64,000 nt of DNA from an uncultured Verrucomicrobiota bacterium (GTDB lineage Bacteria; Verrucomicrobiota; Kiritimatiellia; RFP12; UBA1067): NCBI GenBank assembly GCA_947305775.1, contig CAMZEN010000007.1:61-64060 (forward strand), read 5' to 3'. Positions within the stretch are counted from its first letter, which is position 1. Each line of letters opens with the position of its first letter. This document shows positions 3,101 through 59,399 of the stretch, one piece after another. The position numbers were made by a program, and so were the translations under genes. The notes under the pieces were generated by a model that worked only from the letters and a program-made list of their open reading frames with translations, made no database searches and was not told the DNA's origin.

Positions 3101-4048
3101 ATGGGGAGAATCATCCCGACTATTAAAATGGTGCTGGAGCACTATCCGAAATGTGCAGCCATTGAGCGCTTGCGCATGGAACGACCGAGCGAAAAAACGG
3201 TCTCGAACGTTACAGGTGCTCTTGTAAGGCTCTGCCGGCTTGGAGAAATCTCCTTGGACGAGCCTGTCGTCGTCTTCACCAGAAAACGTCTGGAACGTGT
3301 GTTCGACGGTGCAAGGCGCGACGGGCTCTCCCCCGTCACCATCTGGAGCTACATACTCTCGCTTCGGGCCATCTTCGCCAAATGGACGCGCCCGTATTAC
3401 GCAGACAAGAAGTGGACGGTTCCGGCGATTGAGCTACCCTCGTGCCGCCGTAAGGCTCCGCGCTATGTCCGCCCGGATTCAACTGTCCTCGCCAAGGTCA
3501 AGGAATGGTATGCATCCCTTGAAACTCGCCAAGACCCTCGCGAATGGGTGCTGGCAACGCTTATGCTGGAGTTCGCCATGCGAAACGGTGACGCAGAGGC
3601 TCTACGCTGGTCTGATTTTCGCAAGAAGGCCGGCACAACCATCCTCTGCTATACGCCGCACAAGACTCGACTATCATCGGGTCGCACAGTTGCCTGGCCC
3701 GTCCATCCAGACATCCTTGCACGGCTAGAGACATACCATGCTGCCGGCATCCCATACAACAAGCGCAGGGGTTGGTCAAAGAACGAAGACCGCGACTCCC
3801 GACTTGTTGTTCCCTGTGCCCGCGACGTCTTCGTGCGTCTCAACAAAGAACTGCGCGAGAAAAAGATATTCACCGGACACAAGGGCTGCTACGAACTCCG
3901 CAAGATTTGCATAGACCACATCTACCAGAAGTTCGGGGTAGAGGCGGCCTCTTCAATCTCCGGCGACGACATCCACACCGTCATGCACTATTACGCCGAT
4001 CCAAGCGCGGTCACGCAAGTCGGTGTCCGCGTCCTAGAACTTCTGTAG
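3101..4048 (+). CDS. tyrosine-type site-specific recombinase/integrase (phage integrase family)
   Basis: N-terminal SAM-like core-binding region. The conserved Arg box (AMRNGDAEALRWSDF) and a C-terminal H-x-x-LRK...H...Y region (TGHKGCYELRKICIDHIYQKFG ... ISGDDIHTVMHYY) are consistent with the R-K-H-R-H-Y catalytic signature. An RBS (AAAGGAGG) lies upstream. Confidence 0.55.
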   Translation: MGRIIPTIKMVLEHYPKCAAIERLRMERPSEKTVSNVTGALVRLCRLGEISLDEPVVVFTRKRLERVFDGARRDGLSPVTIWSYILSLRAIFAKWTRPYYADKKWTVPAIELPSCRRKAPRYVRPDSTVLAKVKEWYASLETRQDPREWVLATLMLEFAMRNGDAEALRWSDFRKKAGTTILCYTPHKTRLSSGRTVAWPVHPDILARLETYHAAGIPYNKRRGWSKNEDRDSRLVVPCARDVFVRLNKELREKKIFTGHKGCYELRKICIDHIYQKFGVEAASSISGDDIHTVMHYYADPSAVTQVGVRVLELL

Positions 4049-4131
4049 TGAAGAGCAAACCGCCCTTCTCTCATCACGATTTCTTTGTTCTGCCGGACAG
4101 GGTGAAAAGCCCTACAAAAAGGAACAAGACA

Positions 4132-4839
4132 ATGAAGAAACTCATGATTGCAGCAGCGGTTATGGCCGCAGGCGTCGCGATGGCAGATGGAATCGTCAGC
4201 TCGGATGTAGTCGGCTACCAGACTAAGACGGTGACGACAGGGTTCTCACTTCAGACCCCTACGTTCACTGATGTCGGCGTGGATGGCTATGACCTTGCAA
4301 ACTTCAAGTTTGTCGATGGTGCTGGTGATGGAACTGAGACGATTCAGGTCCTTGACGCAAACGGTGTCAACAATGAAACTTGGACTTGGCTCAACGGAAA
4401 CGTGGGCATGGCTGACGGTTGGTATGATTTCATTACCTGGGATCCGATTGTAGCCACTATCGTCCCTGGTGATGGCTATCTCATGAACGTTTCGGCCGAC
4501 GTTGATATGCAGTTCGCCGGTCAGGTCAAAAATGGTAAGACCACAGTGACGATTCCGGCAGGGTTCTTCATCGTCGGTAACTGCACACCTTCGCCTGTTA
4601 GCATTCAGGATCTAAAGCTCGTTAATGCTGCTGGTGACGGAACCGAAACAATTCAGGTGCTTGATGAAAATGGTGTCAACAATGAGACCTGGACATGGCT
4701 CAACGGTAATGTTGGAATGGCTGACGGTTGGTACGATTTCATTACTTGGGAACCAATCGTTGCGACCATTGCGCCCGGCGAGGCTTTTCTCTTGAATGTG
4801 TCGGCTGATGTCGATATGGAGGTGCCTTCAGTCCTCTAA
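4132..4839 (+). CDS. secreted tandem-repeat protein, paralog A1 (signal peptide plus two ~95-aa internal repeats)
   Basis: ATG at 4132 with RBS AAAGGAAC. Signal peptide MKKLMIAAAVMAAGVAMA. An internal duplication (…GAGDGTETIQVLD(A/E)NGVNNETWTWLNGNVGMADGWYDFITW…VSADVDM…) occurs twice. The conserved 42-nt leader begins at TTCTGCCGGACAG. Confidence 0.7.
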   Translation: MKKLMIAAAVMAAGVAMADGIVSSDVVGYQTKTVTTGFSLQTPTFTDVGVDGYDLANFKFVDGAGDGTETIQVLDANGVNNETWTWLNGNVGMADGWYDFITWDPIVATIVPGDGYLMNVSADVDMQFAGQVKNGKTTVTIPAGFFIVGNCTPSPVSIQDLKLVNAAGDGTETIQVLDENGVNNETWTWLNGNVGMADGWYDFITWEPIVATIAPGEAFLLNVSADVDMEVPSVL

Positions 4840-4893
4840 AGGATTTTGGTGTGCGGCATAGGGTCGCATGCTTATAAAAGGAAAACAATCAAA

Positions 4894-5436
4894 ATGAAGA
4901 AACTAATGATATTGGTTGCGGCGGCATCCCTCGCAGGGCTTGTCAATGCTGCAACCTGCAACTGGTCAGGGTCTGCTGTCGCTCTCAAGTCTGCGACAGA
5001 TGATCCAACTAAGTATACGGTCTATCTGCTTGATGCTACGGTGACCGACGCTTCGACGATGGCGGGGTACCTCACCAATGGTGACACCTCCTACCTCGCC
5101 GCCGCTACGGTCACAACTACAGCCGGCATCGCAGTTGGCTCGCCAGCTACGGCTGCTCGTTGGGGCAAGAATGGCTTCGGCAGCTATACGGCTGGTGATG
5201 CTTACACGTATTACACAGTAATCTTCAATGATGCGGTCGATAGCGCCGACTACTTCATGATCACGGCTGAGAAGGCCGCAACCGTGCCTTCGTCTGGTTC
5301 GCTTGCAATGTCGTTCGGCTCGCAGGCCAGCAACTCGTGGGTTGCGATGGGATCTTCCCCCGTCCCGGAGCCGACTTCGGGTCTCCTCATGCTCCTCGGC
5401 ATGGCTGGCTTGGCGCTCCGCCGTCGCCGCGCGTAA
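4894..5436 (+). CDS. PEP-CTERM sorting domain-containing protein, paralog B1
   Basis: RBS AAAAGGAAAAC then ATG. Signal peptide MKKLMILVAAASLAGLVNA. C-terminal VPEPTSGLLMLLGMAGLALRRRRA is a canonical PEP-CTERM sorting signal: PEP motif, transmembrane helix, Arg cluster. Confidence 0.75.
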   Translation: MKKLMILVAAASLAGLVNAATCNWSGSAVALKSATDDPTKYTVYLLDATVTDASTMAGYLTNGDTSYLAAATVTTTAGIAVGSPATAARWGKNGFGSYTAGDAYTYYTVIFNDAVDSADYFMITAEKAATVPSSGSLAMSFGSQASNSWVAMGSSPVPEPTSGLLMLLGMAGLALRRRRA

Positions 5437-5455
5437 TCTGATTCAATCAGTTCGC

Positions 5456-5490
5456 AACAAGAAGCCGCACTCATCCGAGCGCGGCTTTCT
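5456..5490 (+). terminator. GC-rich hairpin (REP-like) plus T-run downstream of B1
   Basis: GAAGCCGCACTCatccGAGCGCGGCTTTCTTATTG. The inverted repeat AAGCCGC…GCGGCTT is followed by a T-rich tract. The same hairpin family recurs at 6816-6847 and 10062-10096. Confidence 0.5.
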
Positions 5491-5548
5491 TATTGATTCG
5501 TGAGGTGGCTTGTGGCATTGGCGGACGACATGGTATAATACGGTTGGA

Positions 5549-6805
5549 ATGCGTTTAGAGTACTCGAGAACGGGAAAGCAGTTCTTTTTCGTCACGCTTG
5601 GCGTAGCCGAAAGACGATCTGTGCTTTCGCAACTTGGCGACGAAAAGAGCCGCCCAGAGCTGACCGAACTTGGCGAGCTGGTGAAGGCTGCGCTAAGAGC
5701 GGTGCACCGTGTTTGGTCGGCGGCGACTGTAAGCAACTACGTGATAATGCCCGACCATATCCATTATCTTCTTATAGTCGATTACGACCGAGACAAGTCG
5801 ATAAGCCCGCTATTTATCGCTCACCGTATCGCTGACGCGGTTGAAATGGCCGTCGCCAGAGGATTGGAACGAACGGGGGCTTGCGCCCCCGCACCCCCAG
5901 CGATGCCACCATCGCTAGCGACTCGCGCCCCAGCACTCCAAGCGATGCCACTACCATTGGCGACTCGCGCCCCAGCGCCTCCAACCGAGGGCGAGGCATT
6001 GAGAAAGCGACTGGCCGAGGAGCGCGTAGCAAAGATGGTCGCGCTCTTTAAAGTCGCCATAAAGGCCGCCAATCGCCGCGCAGCCGCTGGCTTGCTGAAG
6101 GTCGATAGTGGGCTTTGCTTCGGCGAGGCGGCTGGCTATAGCGCGGCGGCAGCTGGCGAAACGGCTGGGGGTGCGGGGGCGCGAGCCCCCGTCCGTTCCG
6201 TCGTCTTCGCCCGCGATTGCTACATTGAGCTTTCTTTTGACTCGCGCCAGCTAAAGGCCATTCGCAACTACATAAAGCTCAACCCAGCGCGCGCCCTTTG
6301 GAAGCTTCGCAACCCCGACCTCTTTCTACGCCATCGCGCAATAAAGGCGCATCGCCTCGCGCCGCTTGCGCCATTGAGCTTTGACGGCATTGGCGCCCTC
6401 ACCCTGCTAGGCTCGCCTTTTTTGTTTCATGTGCGGCTCACGCTAAAGAAGACAGTAGCCGAGCATGCCGTAGCCATAGAGGAGGTCGTCGAGAATGCGC
6501 GACGCGGAATGGTGCCGGTATCGGGCTTCATCTCGCCAGGCGAAAAAGAGGCGCTTAAGCGTCTCAAGGCCGAGCCTCGCGCACGCTTCGTGAAGCTTTT
6601 GCCTTATGCGTTGCCGTCGCGCTACGACCCCTCTGCCGAAGACAGCCGCGAAATCGCCGCAGGGAGAATGCTCATTCTCTCGCCATTTAGCGACACGCCG
6701 GCCATCTCGTCGGTTGAGATGAAGCGCGAGCCATCGGCAGCCCACGCCTTCCGTCGTAACTGCCTAGCCATGAACGACATCGCCGCAAAGCTTTGCAGTG
6801 AATAA
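5549..6805 (+). CDS. IS200-like / REP-associated tyrosine transposase (RAYT-like, Transposase_17 HUH Y1) with in-frame low-complexity insertion and C-terminal extension
   Basis: N-terminal region matches the RAYT pattern (…SRTGKQFFFVTLGVAERRSVL…ELV…YVIMPDHIHYLLIV, the HUH motif). A downstream catalytic-Tyr helix (KAIRNYIKLNPARALW) is present. 5876-6190 is a 315-bp in-frame segment bounded by 24-bp inverted repeats and containing a 42-bp tandem duplication. The ORF could begin at 5510; 5549 gives an RAYT-like N-terminus. A TATAAT box lies 8 nt upstream. Confidence 0.65.
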   Translation: MRLEYSRTGKQFFFVTLGVAERRSVLSQLGDEKSRPELTELGELVKAALRAVHRVWSAATVSNYVIMPDHIHYLLIVDYDRDKSISPLFIAHRIADAVEMAVARGLERTGACAPAPPAMPPSLATRAPALQAMPLPLATRAPAPPTEGEALRKRLAEERVAKMVALFKVAIKAANRRAAAGLLKVDSGLCFGEAAGYSAAAAGETAGGAGARAPVRSVVFARDCYIELSFDSRQLKAIRNYIKLNPARALWKLRNPDLFLRHRAIKAHRLAPLAPLSFDGIGALTLLGSPFLFHVRLTLKKTVAEHAVAIEEVVENARRGMVPVSGFISPGEKEALKRLKAEPRARFVKLLPYALPSRYDPSAEDSREIAAGRMLILSPFSDTPAISSVEMKREPSAAHAFRRNCLAMNDIAAKLCSE

Positions 6806-6815
6806 ACAATGAAGC

Positions 6816-6847
6816 CGCACTCGAAAGAGTGCGGCTTCTTTTGCGTT
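6816..6847. terminator. bidirectional hairpin terminator / REP-like hairpin between convergent genes
   Basis: GAAGCCGCACTCgaaaGAGTGCGGCTTCTTTT lies between the stop of the plus-strand transposase-like gene (6805) and the stop of minus-strand B2 (6862). U-runs are present on both strands. Confidence 0.55.
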
Positions 6848-6861
6848 CTGACTGAATCAGA

Positions 6862-7404
6862 TTACGCGCGGCGACGACGAAGCGCCAAGCCAGCCATGCC
6901 GAGGAGCATGAGGAGGCCAGAGGTCGGCTCTGGGACGGGGGAAGACCCCATCGCAACCCACGAGTTGCTGGCCTGCGAGCCAAACGCCATCTGAAGCGAG
7001 CCCGACGAAGGCACGGTTGCGGCCTTCTCAGCCGTGATCATGAAGTAATCCGCACTATCGATCGCATCATTGAATACGACAGTATAATACGTGTAGGCAT
7101 CACCGGCGGTATAGCTGCCGAAGCCATTGTAGCCCCAGCGAGCAGCCGTAACTGGCGAGCCAACTGCGATGCCGGCTGTAGTTGTAACCGTAGCGGCAGC
7201 GAGGTAGGAGGTATCACCCTTAGCAAGGTAACCCGCCATCGTCGAAGCGTCGGTCACAGAAGCATCAAGCAGAACTACTGCGTACTTCGTTGGATCATCT
7301 GTGGCAGACTGGAGCGCGACAGCAGCTCCAGACCAGTTGCAGGTTGCAGCATTGACAAGCCCTGCGAGGGATGCCGCCGCAACAAATATCATTAGTTTCT
7401 TCAT
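6862..7404 (-). CDS. PEP-CTERM sorting domain-containing protein, paralog B2
   Basis: MKKLMIFVAAASLAGLVNAATCNWSG… ends with VPEPTSGLLMLLGMAGLALRRRRA. About 85-90% identical to B1, in inverted orientation. Confidence 0.75.
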   Translation of the reverse strand: MKKLMIFVAAASLAGLVNAATCNWSGAAVALQSATDDPTKYAVVLLDASVTDASTMAGYLAKGDTSYLAAATVTTTAGIAVGSPVTAARWGYNGFGSYTAGDAYTYYTVVFNDAIDSADYFMITAEKAATVPSSGSLQMAFGSQASNSWVAMGSSPVPEPTSGLLMLLGMAGLALRRRRA

Positions 7405-7456
7405 TTTGTTTATTTTCCTTTCCAGCATGCGACCCTATGCCGCACACCAAAATCCT

Positions 7457-8163
7457 TTAGAGGACCGAAGGCACCTCCATATCGACATCAGCCGACACAT
7501 TCATAAGGAACGCTTCGCCGGGAGCAATGGTAGCATCGATTGATTCCCAAGTGACGGAATCGTACCAGCCGTCAGCCATGCCAACGTTTCCGTTGAGCCA
7601 CGCCCAAGTTACATTGTTAACACCATTTTCATCAAGCACCTGAATAACTTCGGTGCCGTCACCTGCAGCATTAACGAGCTTCAGGCTCTGGATGCTAATA
7701 GGCATAGGCGTGCAGTTACCGGCAACGAAGAACCCCGTTGGAACCGTCACTGTGGTCTTGCCATTTTTGACCTGACCGGCGAACTGCATATCAACATCAG
7801 CAGAGACATTCATGAGATAGCCATCACCAGGAACGATAGTGGCAGCAATAGGCTCCCAAGAGACGGAATCATACCAACCGTCAGGCATGCCCACGTTTCC
7901 GTTGAGCCACGCCCATGTCTCATTGTTGACGCCGTTCGCATCGAGAACCTGAATAACTTCAGTTCCGTCGCCGGCACCATTGACAAACTTGAAGTTTGCA
8001 AGGTCATAGCCATCCACGCCGACATCAGTGAACGTAGGGGTCTGAAGTGAGAACCCTGTCGTCACCGTCTTAGTCTGGTAGCCGACTACATCCGAGCTGA
8101 CGATTCCATCTGCCATCGCGACGCCTGCGGCCATAACCGCTGCTGCAATCATGAGTTTCTTCA
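7457..8163 (-). CDS. secreted tandem-repeat protein, paralog A2
   Basis: Signal peptide MKKLMIAAAVMAAGVAMADGIVSSDVVGYQTKT. Same two-repeat architecture as A1. The conserved leader (reverse complement TTCTGCCGGACAGGGTGAAAATCCCTACAAAAAGGAACAAGACA) sits at 8164-8207. Confidence 0.7.
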
Positions 8164-8419
8164 TTGTCTTGTTCCTTTTTGTAGGGATTTTCACCCTGTC
8201 CGGCAGAAGTAAGAAATTCAGCAGTCTCCCTTGGGTCGCAATTAGGGGTTCGCTCTCAGGCGAACGACTTGGTTGCGAATGTCCGTTCAACTCTTGACTT
8301 TCCAACTCCTTTCGGTGTTTTTGTTTTCCCCCGTGTAGCACCGCGCCCACTGTCAGGATTTGCCGCTCTAGCCTTCACAAGCCATAACCTTGGTCTGATG
8401 GGCCTTTACGACAATGGGA

Positions 8420-10109: not shown

Positions 10110-10275
10110 CTGTTTGTGGTATTGACGGGTGACATGATATAATACAAATGCAATGCGTTTAGAATACTCGAAAACCAGGAAGCGCATAACCCGTCGGCTG
10201 CACACGCATTTCGCCGCAATTGCCTCGCAATGAACGACATCGCCACGAAGCTTTGCGGTGAATATAATAAAGCCG
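10110..10275 (+). pseudogene. internally deleted remnant of the IS200/RAYT-like gene (5' ~60 bp joined to 3' ~90 bp)
   Basis: 10121-10190 aligns to 5520-5580 (…GATATAATAC…ATGCGTTTAGAATACTCGAAAAC…). 10195-10270 aligns to 6735-6805 (…CATTTCGCCGCAATTGCCTCGCAATGAACGACATCGCCACGAAGCTTTGCGGTGAATA…). Confidence 0.5.
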
Positions 10276-52215: not shown

Positions 52216-52299
52216 CGTCCTACTAGCCGCCCACAACCCAACCACGACTCTCCCGCGACTCTTGGACAAAAGTGCGTGCACTTTCTGGACAACACCGAA

Positions 52300-52815
52300 A
52301 AAGCGGGGACAGTCCCCGCACTCACCCAAACCTTTGCGACCTTCGCGAACTTCGCGTGAGTCCACACCCGCCCCAAAAAGCGGGGACAGTCCCTTGATTC
52401 GCGCGGCACACTTATTGCAATAAGTGTTCCAAGACTTCATTGTTCTGCCCGCTATTCTGCGGGTACGGATGCCAACTGAAGCCGAAAAGATGAATTTCTA
52501 TGCAATAAACCTGCCAGATACCTTCGTATCATCCAGTCCGACCTTTGTATCATCCAGTACCGACTCTGTATCATCCAGTAGGGACCTTTGTATCTTTGTG
52601 ATACACAAACAGAGAAACAAAACAGATAACAAAACAGATTTTAACAGAGAACCAATTGCCCTGGATAAAGTTGTTGAATCCATGTAGAGACTGTCCCCCC
52701 CCCCCCAAAAAAAAAAGCGGGGACAGTCCCCGCACTCACCCAAAACCTTTGCGACCTTCGCGAAGTTCGCGTGAGCTCCCACCCCCGCAAAAAGCGGGGA
52801 CAGGCACCGCAAGTT
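52300..52815 (+). repeat. composite repeat element, copy A (REP-like hairpins plus iteron core)
   Basis: Near-identical to 58860-59365. Contains four AAAAGCGGGGACAG(TCCCCGC) hairpin units. 18-bp palindrome CACTTATTGCAATAAGTG (52409-52426). Three GTATCATCCAGT iterons at 21-bp spacing (52526-52579). Inverted pair TGTATC…GATACA. C12A10 tract (52695-52716) enclosed by GACTGTCCCC/GGGGACAGTC. Confidence 0.75.
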
Positions 52816-52944
52816 CTGTGATGTCCAGAAGCTAATGCAAGATTCTCTTGCGTTTAGTTCTGAACACGACACGATCAAGCGCGGGGAGCCCCGCCTTATA
52901 ATGCCTAGCCGGTGCGGAGATGCACAGTGGTTTTGAAAACAAAA

Positions 52945-58859: not shown

Positions 58860-59365
58860 AAATTGAGAGCGCGAAAAGCGGGGACAGGCCCCATGTGCGT
58901 TGCGCGTGAGCCCACACCCGCCCCCAAAAGCGGGGACAAGTCCCCTGATTCGCGCAGCACACTTATTGCAATAAGTGTTCCAAGACTTCATTGTTCTGCC
59001 CGCTATTCTGCGGGTACGGATGCCAACTGAAGCCGAAAAGATGAATTTCTATGCAATAAACCTGCCAGATACCTTCGTATCATCCAGTCCGACCTTTGTA
59101 TCATCCAGTACCGACTCTGTATCATCCAGTAGGGACCTTTGTATCTTTGTGATACACAAACAGAGAAACAAAACAGATAACAAAACAGATTTTAACAGAG
59201 AACCAATTGCCCTGGATAAAGTTGTTGAATCCATGTAGAGACTGTCCCCCCCCCCCCAAAAAAAAAGCGGGGACAGTCCCCGCACTCACCCAAAACCATT
59301 GCGACCTTCGCGAACTTCGCGTGAGCCCACACCCGCCGCAAAAGCGGGGACAGGCACCGCAAGTT
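58860..59365 (+). repeat. composite repeat element, copy B
   Basis: Direct repeat of 52300-52815. Same hairpins, 18-bp palindrome (58959-58976), three iterons (59077-59130) and a C12A9 tract (59246-59266). The left-most hairpin unit is diverged. Confidence 0.75.
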
Positions 59366-59399
59366 CTCACCAACCCAGCCAACCCTTTCTTTAGGTTCG

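Follow-up and report, generated by a model that had tools for sequence, protein, structure and literature searches.

The stretch of DNA analysed here, 64,000 nt of contig CAMZEN010000007.1 from an uncultured Verrucomicrobiota bacterium (assembly GCA_947305775.1; hereafter the window), contains on its (+) strand an intact gene at positions 5549-6805, with an ATG start codon at 5549 and a TAA stop codon at 6803-6805. Based on the calling of open reading frames (ORFs), homologues, an AF2 model and Foldseek comparisons, its product is a protein of 418 amino acids (aa) of the RAYT class of Y1 HuH enzymes which ends in a DprA-like domain. Between its HuH and catalytic Tyr motifs the gene carries, in frame, an inverted pair of short G/C-rich hairpins, which likely represents a doublet of the enzyme's own cognate hairpins of the repetitive extragenic palindromic (REP) type. 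An earlier note on this locus had described an in-frame insert, bounded by inverted repeats, between the two motifs of such a protein, and this description was borne out by the location of the motifs PDHIH and YIKLNP and of both repeat arms. The protein length of 431 aa given there was not, as it would require initiation at a TTG codon (5510) that falls into a promoter-like site at 5512-5539, and all orthologues begin with MRLEY or MKLEY.

The protein and its family

The assignment of the 418-aa protein as a Y1 HuH enzyme of the RAYT/IS200-like type with conserved catalytic residues is supported by both sequence comparison and structural modeling. The HuH motif PDHIH (aa 68-72, encoded at 5750-5764 on the (+) strand) is located on strand 70-78 of the model, and residues M67, P68, D69, H70 and H72 are invariant among 55 family and paralogue sequences. 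The motif YIKLNP (6269-6286, (+) strand), which includes the putative catalytic residue Y241, is part of helix 232-254; here, Y241, I242 and N245 are invariant in the same sequences, while P246 is conserved in at least 90% of them. The signature Y---NP has been used to define class 2 (TnpAREP) in the classification of TnpAY1 proteins (PMC6006769), and the protein is therefore assigned to this class. Structural modeling by AF2 on a shallow alignment (A1) did not yield a usable model (predicted local distance difference test score, pLDDT, of 48.6). Paralogues were added, and the resulting 55-sequence alignment led to a model with a pLDDT of 81.6 and a predicted template-modeling score (pTM) of 0.75. 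Foldseek matched the N-terminal half of this model to the transposases of ISDra2 (2xma/2xm3, E about 1.4e-3), IS608 (2vjv) and TnpA from S. tokodaii (2ec2), and to the E. coli RAYT (4er8, E 0.069, probability 0.96).

The C-terminal extension of about 170 aa which had been pointed out before is real and turned out to be the best-conserved part of the protein. Its DprA-like, Rossmann-type domain (about aa 262-418, 6332-6802 on the (+) strand) comprises the residues S325, G326, F327, I328, S329, G331 and E332, which are invariant in all 55 sequences. The closest structural match in the PDB is DprA of H. pylori (4ljr_A, E 7.1e-5, probability 1.0, template-modeling score normalized to the target 0.47, 22% identity over 158 columns), and further matches were obtained to S. 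pneumoniae DprA (3uqz), to 3maj and to ShosA (8zva). Based on this modeled fold, the domain probably adds binding of single-stranded DNA to the enzyme. At the level of sequence, neither the DprA models of Pfam nor those of PADLOC were matched, and a profile search against PDB sequences returned nothing meaningful. PADLOC gave no match for the protein either, leaving a defence-system reading without support from this source, and no paper in which DprA is named along with both IS200 and HuH turned up in a text search.

A homologue search with the 418-aa protein found 664 sequences. The family is small, with 778 representatives at E ≤1e-3 among 1.84 billion, which originate from rumen and gut metagenome-assembled genomes (MAGs) of Kiritimatiellia/Lentisphaerae. 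Insert-free relatives reach 13.6-21 bits with the Y1_Tnp model over the core of the domain, which is below the cut-off of 23, while some members of a paralogous subfamily carry a precomputed PF01797 assignment and one has been named RayT by JGI. Within the protein collection, a single entry matches exactly, a product of 256 aa which starts at M163 (P0062; NCBI/ENA), and the full 418-aa protein is not contained. The public source annotation thus appears to hold the C-terminal 256 aa alone and seems to omit the HuH half and the repeat, neither of which is therefore represented in the searched collection.

An inverted pair of hairpins within the reading frame

The 24-bp inverted repeat described in the earlier note occurs at exactly two sites in the window, 5875-5898 on the (+) strand and 6167-6190 on the (-) strand with a single mismatch (23/24), and none of 100 shuffled sequences contained any match to it. 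The true repeat is longer, with arms of 36 nt at 5866-5901 and 6164-6199 which are complementary at 34 of 36 positions, and each arm holds a 7-bp hairpin of its own. The left REP-like arm ((+) strand) consists of a foot, GGAACGAA, the hairpin CGGGGGC-TTGC-GCCCCCG at 5874-5891 and a tail, CACCCCC, and encodes ERTGACAPAPPA. The right REP-like arm has the same motif on the bottom strand, with the hairpin CGGGGGC-GCGA-GCCCCCG at 6174-6191, and its top strand encodes AGGAGARAPVRS. The two arms correspond to aa 106-118 and 206-217 and are thus located between H72 and Y241. They are read in frames offset by one, and the palindromic core is translated to G-A-R-A-P in both. Because of this offset, no meaning can be assigned to the earlier observation that the insert measures 315 bp and hence a multiple of three; in addition, the outer edges of the 24-mers span 316 bp. 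The spacing between the HuH motif and the tyrosine amounts to 169 aa, compared to 62 aa in paralogues that lack the insert and about 61 aa in locus L010 (loci of relatives are given by such numbers), which leaves about 107 extra residues, in good agreement with the previous estimate of about 110.

Between the arms, two parts can be distinguished. Tandem Repeats Finder (TRF) identified an array with a period of 42 bp at 5883-5988 ((+) strand; 2.5 copies, 82% matches); the earlier note had placed a 42-bp tandem duplication at 5899-5982. The array contains further copies of the left arm's 3' half (GCGCCCC(C/A)GCAC(C/T)CC), encodes a Pro/Ala-rich linker and varies in length among close orthologues. 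It is followed by a core at 5987-6085 ((+) strand), which is predicted to encode a long alpha-helix (aa 147-179; pLDDT of the model block 86-96). In the set of close homologues, M163 and A174 within this helix are invariant, as are L183, G188, F191 and G192 just past it. The model places the insert between helix 87-103 and strand 220-229, and its sole low-confidence segments, 109-133 and 184-217, are those where the arms fall. The folding free energy of the region 5860-6205 is far below that of shuffled sequences for both DNA (z = -7.6) and RNA (z = -9.2).

Many family fragments (representatives P0246-P0303) end near aa 106-120 or start near aa 206-220, hence where the arms are located. This points to frequent breaks of assemblies or gene calls at the repeat, for which heterogeneity within the population is one possible cause.

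Conservation of the arms among orthologues

All full-length family members that were examined, with aa identities down to about 51%, have the inverted pair at the same site; its consensus is GGAACGGA-CGGGGGC-loop-GCCCCCG-(A/C)ACCCC. An alignment of 30 close homologues (63-78% identity) revealed that all of them keep the segments ERTGA.AP.PP and GGAGARAPVRS and the conserved core in between, while the lengths of the flanking low-complexity stretches vary. As judged from these comparisons, the insert is neither recent nor disruptive. The orthologues hence share the linker and also keep the repeat at the level of DNA; the combination that the earlier note had named as an indication of a native linker, the same linker without an inverted repeat, was not encountered.

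The arms are conserved beyond their coding content. The entropy of synonymous codons is 0.50 bit in the arms versus 1.09 bit for the gene outside of them (Mann-Whitney p = 4e-5), with the minimum of the whole gene at aa 207-216 in the right arm, and in an amino-acid-matched permutation none of 20,000 draws was as low as the value observed for the arms. The codon for R212 in the hairpin loop stays variable, as expected for a hairpin. By this measure, the arms are under purifying selection at the nucleotide level. Among 63 distinct instances of the motif, 60 retain at least five consecutive Watson-Crick pairs and 40 have the foot GGAACGGA, while 27 different loops occur. Stem changes on both sides are present in L047 (GGGGGA/TCCCCC), L014 (GGGGCC/GGCCCC) and L011 (GGGGA/TCCCC). 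In blastn comparisons of orthologues, homology is interrupted between the arms, ending at the left one and starting again exactly at the right one, and it is the interior DNA that evolves fastest. The two arms are perfectly complementary in L042, L043 and L046; in the clade of L003 they differ from each other by an indel, yet each arm is kept across species.

Copies of the motif outside of the reading frame

A total of 537 kb of sequence was scanned for the motif with a strict pattern; a looser pattern resulted mostly in noise in distant paralogues. All matches to the strict pattern are located inside a gene of the family or at most 300 nt away from one. Copies next to the genes occur on both sides. 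In the window, the promoter-like site at 5512-5539 ((+) strand), GTGGCA-16 nt-TATAAT, ends 9 nt 5' of the ATG, and its -10 hexamer is preceded by TG and therefore of the extended type (TGgTATAAT), which suggests, from sequence, a leaderless or near-leaderless mRNA. The corresponding TGGTATAAT is present 9-10 nt 5' of the start codon also in the orthologues L002, L003, L048, L051 and L054, and is replaced by TGCTATAAT, at 9 nt, in L013. A (+) copy of the motif resides upstream of this promoter-like element in seven loci (L002, L003, L004, L048, L051, L054 and, with TGCTATAAT, L013), and tandem GAGGCCCCGCACCC half-sites come after it in four of these (L002, L004, L048 and L051). Such positions upstream of a promoter argue for a role at the level of DNA rather than mRNA.

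A (-) copy just downstream of the stop codon was found in L010, which is devoid of the in-gene insert, and in L017. In L013, the (+) copy upstream of the start codon is accompanied by a (-) copy inside the gene. Locus L007 harbors a complete second inverted pair directly past the stop codon (2735-2977), which encloses four to five 33-nt tandem repeats and is bordered by a convergent gene on the other side. Conversely, the segment between the arms is deleted in L015, where a perfect palindrome, GGAACGGACGGGGGC-GCGA-GCCCCCGTCCGTTCC, remains. Decayed copies of the family are common and include L015, L016, L018, L055, L056 and a remnant within the window (10153-10265).

A paralogous subfamily with a different hairpin

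Many paralogues have repeat-rich insertions in the same loop of the protein. In L026, L029 and L032, these are in-gene inverted pairs of a different hairpin, GGCCGATC-ACAG-ATCGGCC-ATCAGCACT, and in L032 the same element is also located at the 3' end of the gene. The adjoining gene in L032 (7050-8138), which encodes an NAD-dependent epimerase/dehydratase, contains a pair resembling a REPIN (a doublet of REP sequences) in frame at 7198-7332, just past the GxxGxxG motif. Each of the two enzyme subfamilies compared thus has its own type of hairpin, and such elements can end up in frame within coding DNA. The earlier proposal of a small inverted-repeat element inserted into the gene is in line with the motif being found outside of the ORF in relatives and with the paralogue type in an unrelated gene, but does not hold in so far as the insertion is neither recent nor disruptive.

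Origin and maintenance of the hairpin pair

Taken together, we regard it as likely, from sequence and by analogy to known enzymes, that the in-gene inverted pair is a REPIN-like doublet of the enzyme's cognate REP-like hairpins which has been fixed in frame in a surface loop. The entry of such a doublet into the gene of its own enzyme would date back to an ancestor of the Kiritimatiellia/Lentisphaerae subfamily, arrival by insertion being itself a deduction, and the doublet would have stayed in frame ever since. At the level of the protein, the arms and the tandem copies of the half-site encode linkers that are predicted to be disordered and are rich in Pro/Ala on the left side and in Gly/Ala on the right, and the interior has been exapted as the conserved alpha-helix. 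At the level of DNA, each arm is kept as a G/C hairpin of 6-7 bp with the 5' foot GGAACGGA and the 3' tail (A/C)ACCCC. In analogy to TnpAREP and to TnpA of the IS200/IS605 group, the enzyme may bind the folded hairpin on single-stranded DNA and may cut and rejoin the strand beside it; the top strand would then be the one recognized at the left copy and the bottom strand the one at the right copy. Binding or cleavage of the hairpins by the 418-aa protein is thus inferred from related enzymes, and a selective benefit that keeps the doublet in place is presumed likewise.

Several results weigh against this interpretation. Within the 64-kb window the motif is confined to the two arms, and no copy was located far from a family gene in the 537 kb scanned, hence a dispersed REP population, which is a hallmark of classical RAYT systems, was not seen. 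On the 5' side of the hairpin, the canonical GT[AG]G foot is absent, and the foot is instead GGAACGGA in the 40 of 63 instances mentioned above. In addition, TnpAY1 subclasses with large C-terminal domains have been described as not REP-associated (PMC6006769). The profile comparison proposed in the earlier note gave a match to the NCBIfam model REP_Tyr_transpos which covers aa 10-78 only and, despite an E value of 7e-6, stays below the cut-off (25.9 versus 80 bits); no Pfam family was matched by the full 418-aa protein, nor by aa 248-418 alone. The deletion in L015 could be due to simple slippage between the palindromic cores. Finally, strict covariation from arm to arm was looked for and not found, and the (A/C)ACCCC position is mixed in L001, L002, L040, L047, L048, L050 and L051. 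Long-range pairing of the arms is therefore not clearly a target of selection; from the sequences, pairing between the arms does not appear to be kept, and each copy rather appears to be a conserved site in its own right.

A variant which dispenses with dispersed REPs altogether is that the doublet is a functional cis-module, acted on by the RAYT-DprA fusion enzyme within its own gene and forming a self-contained unit with it. Possible actions would include excision and re-insertion of the segment between the arms, changes in the number of tandem half-sites and, hence, remodeling of the linker, or self-regulation through binding of the enzyme to its own single-stranded coding DNA. We rate this variant as rather unlikely. 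A similarly small likelihood is given to the possibility that the repeat is an mRNA element whose arms pair with each other, or individually form RNA hairpins, and control translation, stability or RNase processing without any link to DNA specificity. The high stability of the RNA fold of 5860-6205 (z = -9.2), the constraint on synonymous sites and the right-arm hairpins of L001 and L004, in which pairing is kept via G-T wobbles on the sense strand, would all be compatible with such an element. In L007, however, the wobble is on the antisense strand, and the arms of the L003 clade, albeit individually conserved, differ by an indel. Moreover, the motif is present outside the coding region, both upstream of the promoter-like TGGTATAAT in seven loci and past the stop codon in others, and no Rfam family was matched.

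If the segment between the arms were an intragenic inverton, recombination between the arms would flip it and thereby switch the gene off or recode it, and the arms in the window (34/36), the perfect arms of L042, L043 and L046, the preservation of the downstream frame on inversion and a tyrosine-recombinase-like ORF nearby (3101-4048) may be taken to point in this direction. This was rejected as very unlikely: inversion leads to a stop codon in the window and to stops in 16 of 22 orthologues, a single orientation occurs in all of the roughly 30 assembled loci and in the 30 aligned homologous proteins, and in the L003 clade one arm differs from the other. It is highly improbable that the segment is a native low-complexity linker and that the inverted repeat at the DNA level arose as a side effect of the amino-acid composition combined with a use of GC-rich codons. 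The arms do encode disordered Pro/Ala- and Gly/Ala-rich segments, and G-A-R-A-P is read from the core of both; against this stand the absence of any match to the 24-mer in 100 shuffles, codons which vary far less in the arms than those for identical amino acids in other parts of the gene, and the occurrence of the motif in non-coding DNA. A recent insertion of an element resembling a miniature inverted-repeat transposable element (MITE), by which the transposase gene was inactivated and turned into a pseudogene, would fit the commonness of decayed family copies (L015, L016, L018, L055, L056 and 10153-10265 in the window). It can hardly be reconciled with an intact ORF, invariant catalytic residues and an insert with a conserved helix that is common to orthologues at 51-82% identity, and we give it next to no credence.

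Relation to known systems

REP sequences located in frame inside tnpAREP genes, generally between HuH and Y, have been reported for TnpAY1 subclass 2.4 and for some members of subclass 2.8 (Quentin, Siguier, Chandler, Fichant 2018, PMC6006769). The arrangement as such is therefore already described for other RAYT groups, and what is new here is the lineage and the unusual features. The earlier note had recognized neither this precedent (PMC6006769) nor the arms as probable cognate REP-like sites. As in subclasses 2.4 and 2.8, the hairpins associated with the enzyme are inside its own ORF, which stays intact, and the same type of repeat is also present beside the gene. In the same study, a central deletion in an inverted REP dimer was proposed as the origin of 'double foot' REPs, and the palindrome of L015 resembles a 'double foot' produced in this way; atypical REPs without GT[AG]G have been described there for subclass 2.6 and class 3 (PMC6006769). 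The gene of the window differs from the subclass 2.4/2.8 cases in its affiliation to Kiritimatiellia/Lentisphaerae, in its short G/C stem without a GT[AG]G foot and in the lack of a dispersed population in the sequences scanned, and also in that the doublet is deeply conserved with its synonymous sites under constraint, and that its interior forms a conserved helix. The large DprA-like C-terminal domain argues against membership in subclass 2.4, which has no extension of the core.

Similar to the REPIN-RAYT or REPtron systems (Bertels and Rainey 2011, PMC3116915; Ton-Hoang group, PMC8266576), a Y1 HuH enzyme with the Y---NP signature is combined with hairpins in inverted doublets of a subfamily-specific type. 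For other RAYTs, co-evolution of TnpAREP with its cognate REP and the processing of REPs in vitro have been established (PMC8266576). Classical REPINs are extragenic and number in the tens to hundreds, and the RAYT gene that they flank has a single copy. Here, each copy found is located either within the gene or next to it, and a MAG contains several distant paralogues and decayed copies. The multiple and decayed copies suggest some mobility of the family. With TnpA of the IS200/IS605 group (IS608, ISDra2), the enzyme shares the core fold and, by analogy, perhaps the logic of hairpin recognition on single-stranded DNA. It differs from these transposases in having Y---NP instead of Y---Q, hairpins which are inverted rather than direct and are positioned inside the ORF rather than at the ends of an element, and no tnpB. 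Defined element boundaries were not found either: comparison of the flanking synteny with the closest relatives gave no clear boundaries, and homology ended near the promoter and the stop codon. The C-terminal domain resembles DprA and DprA-like ShosA in its modeled fold, and a role in binding single-stranded DNA is plausible on this basis; unlike DprA and ShosA, it is part of a fusion with a Y1 HuH domain and has no sequence-level match to Pfam or PADLOC models.

Among domesticated transposases, those of the REP/REPIN-RAYT systems are a leading case of co-evolution between an enzyme and its hairpin substrates, and how the two remain linked is still debated. In the family described here, hairpins that resemble such substrates are embedded in the enzyme's own reading frame, with synonymous sites kept over deep divergence and no dispersed copies found nearby. 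Confirmation would mean that in-frame REP insertions also occur in a new phylum and in a new domain architecture, and that selection can maintain such insertions and does not merely tolerate them.

Genomic surroundings

The gene is followed by a terminator-like, bidirectional hairpin at 6811-6838, which it has in common with a convergent gene for a PEP-CTERM protein. It is positioned exactly at the center of an inverted duplication of 1.42 kb (4079-5499 and 6800-8217, 89% identity). The two copies are two-gene cassettes, each with a PEP-CTERM protein as its second gene, and both converge on 5549-6805. A general association of the family with PEP-CTERM genes was checked and rejected, as such neighbors occur only in the closest relatives. 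The decayed family copy at 10153-10265 is located 3' of a third PEP-CTERM gene and has the same terminator, promoter and start (ATGCGTTTAGAATACTCG), the latter fused to the last ~75 nt of the gene, with about 1.16 kb of the interior deleted.

The ORF at 3101-4048 near the gene resembles tyrosine recombinases/integrases, with a weak match to Pfam Phage_integrase (E 0.0096). A similar tyrosine-recombinase/integrase-like ORF is found near the family gene of L004 (4569-6053), with two small ORFs just upstream which, by appearance alone, look like a toxin-antitoxin pair. Elsewhere in the window, a direct repeat of 467 bp with 97% identity (52298-52817 and 58903-59367) is accompanied by shorter copies of 93-94 nt; it is unrelated to the hairpin pair.

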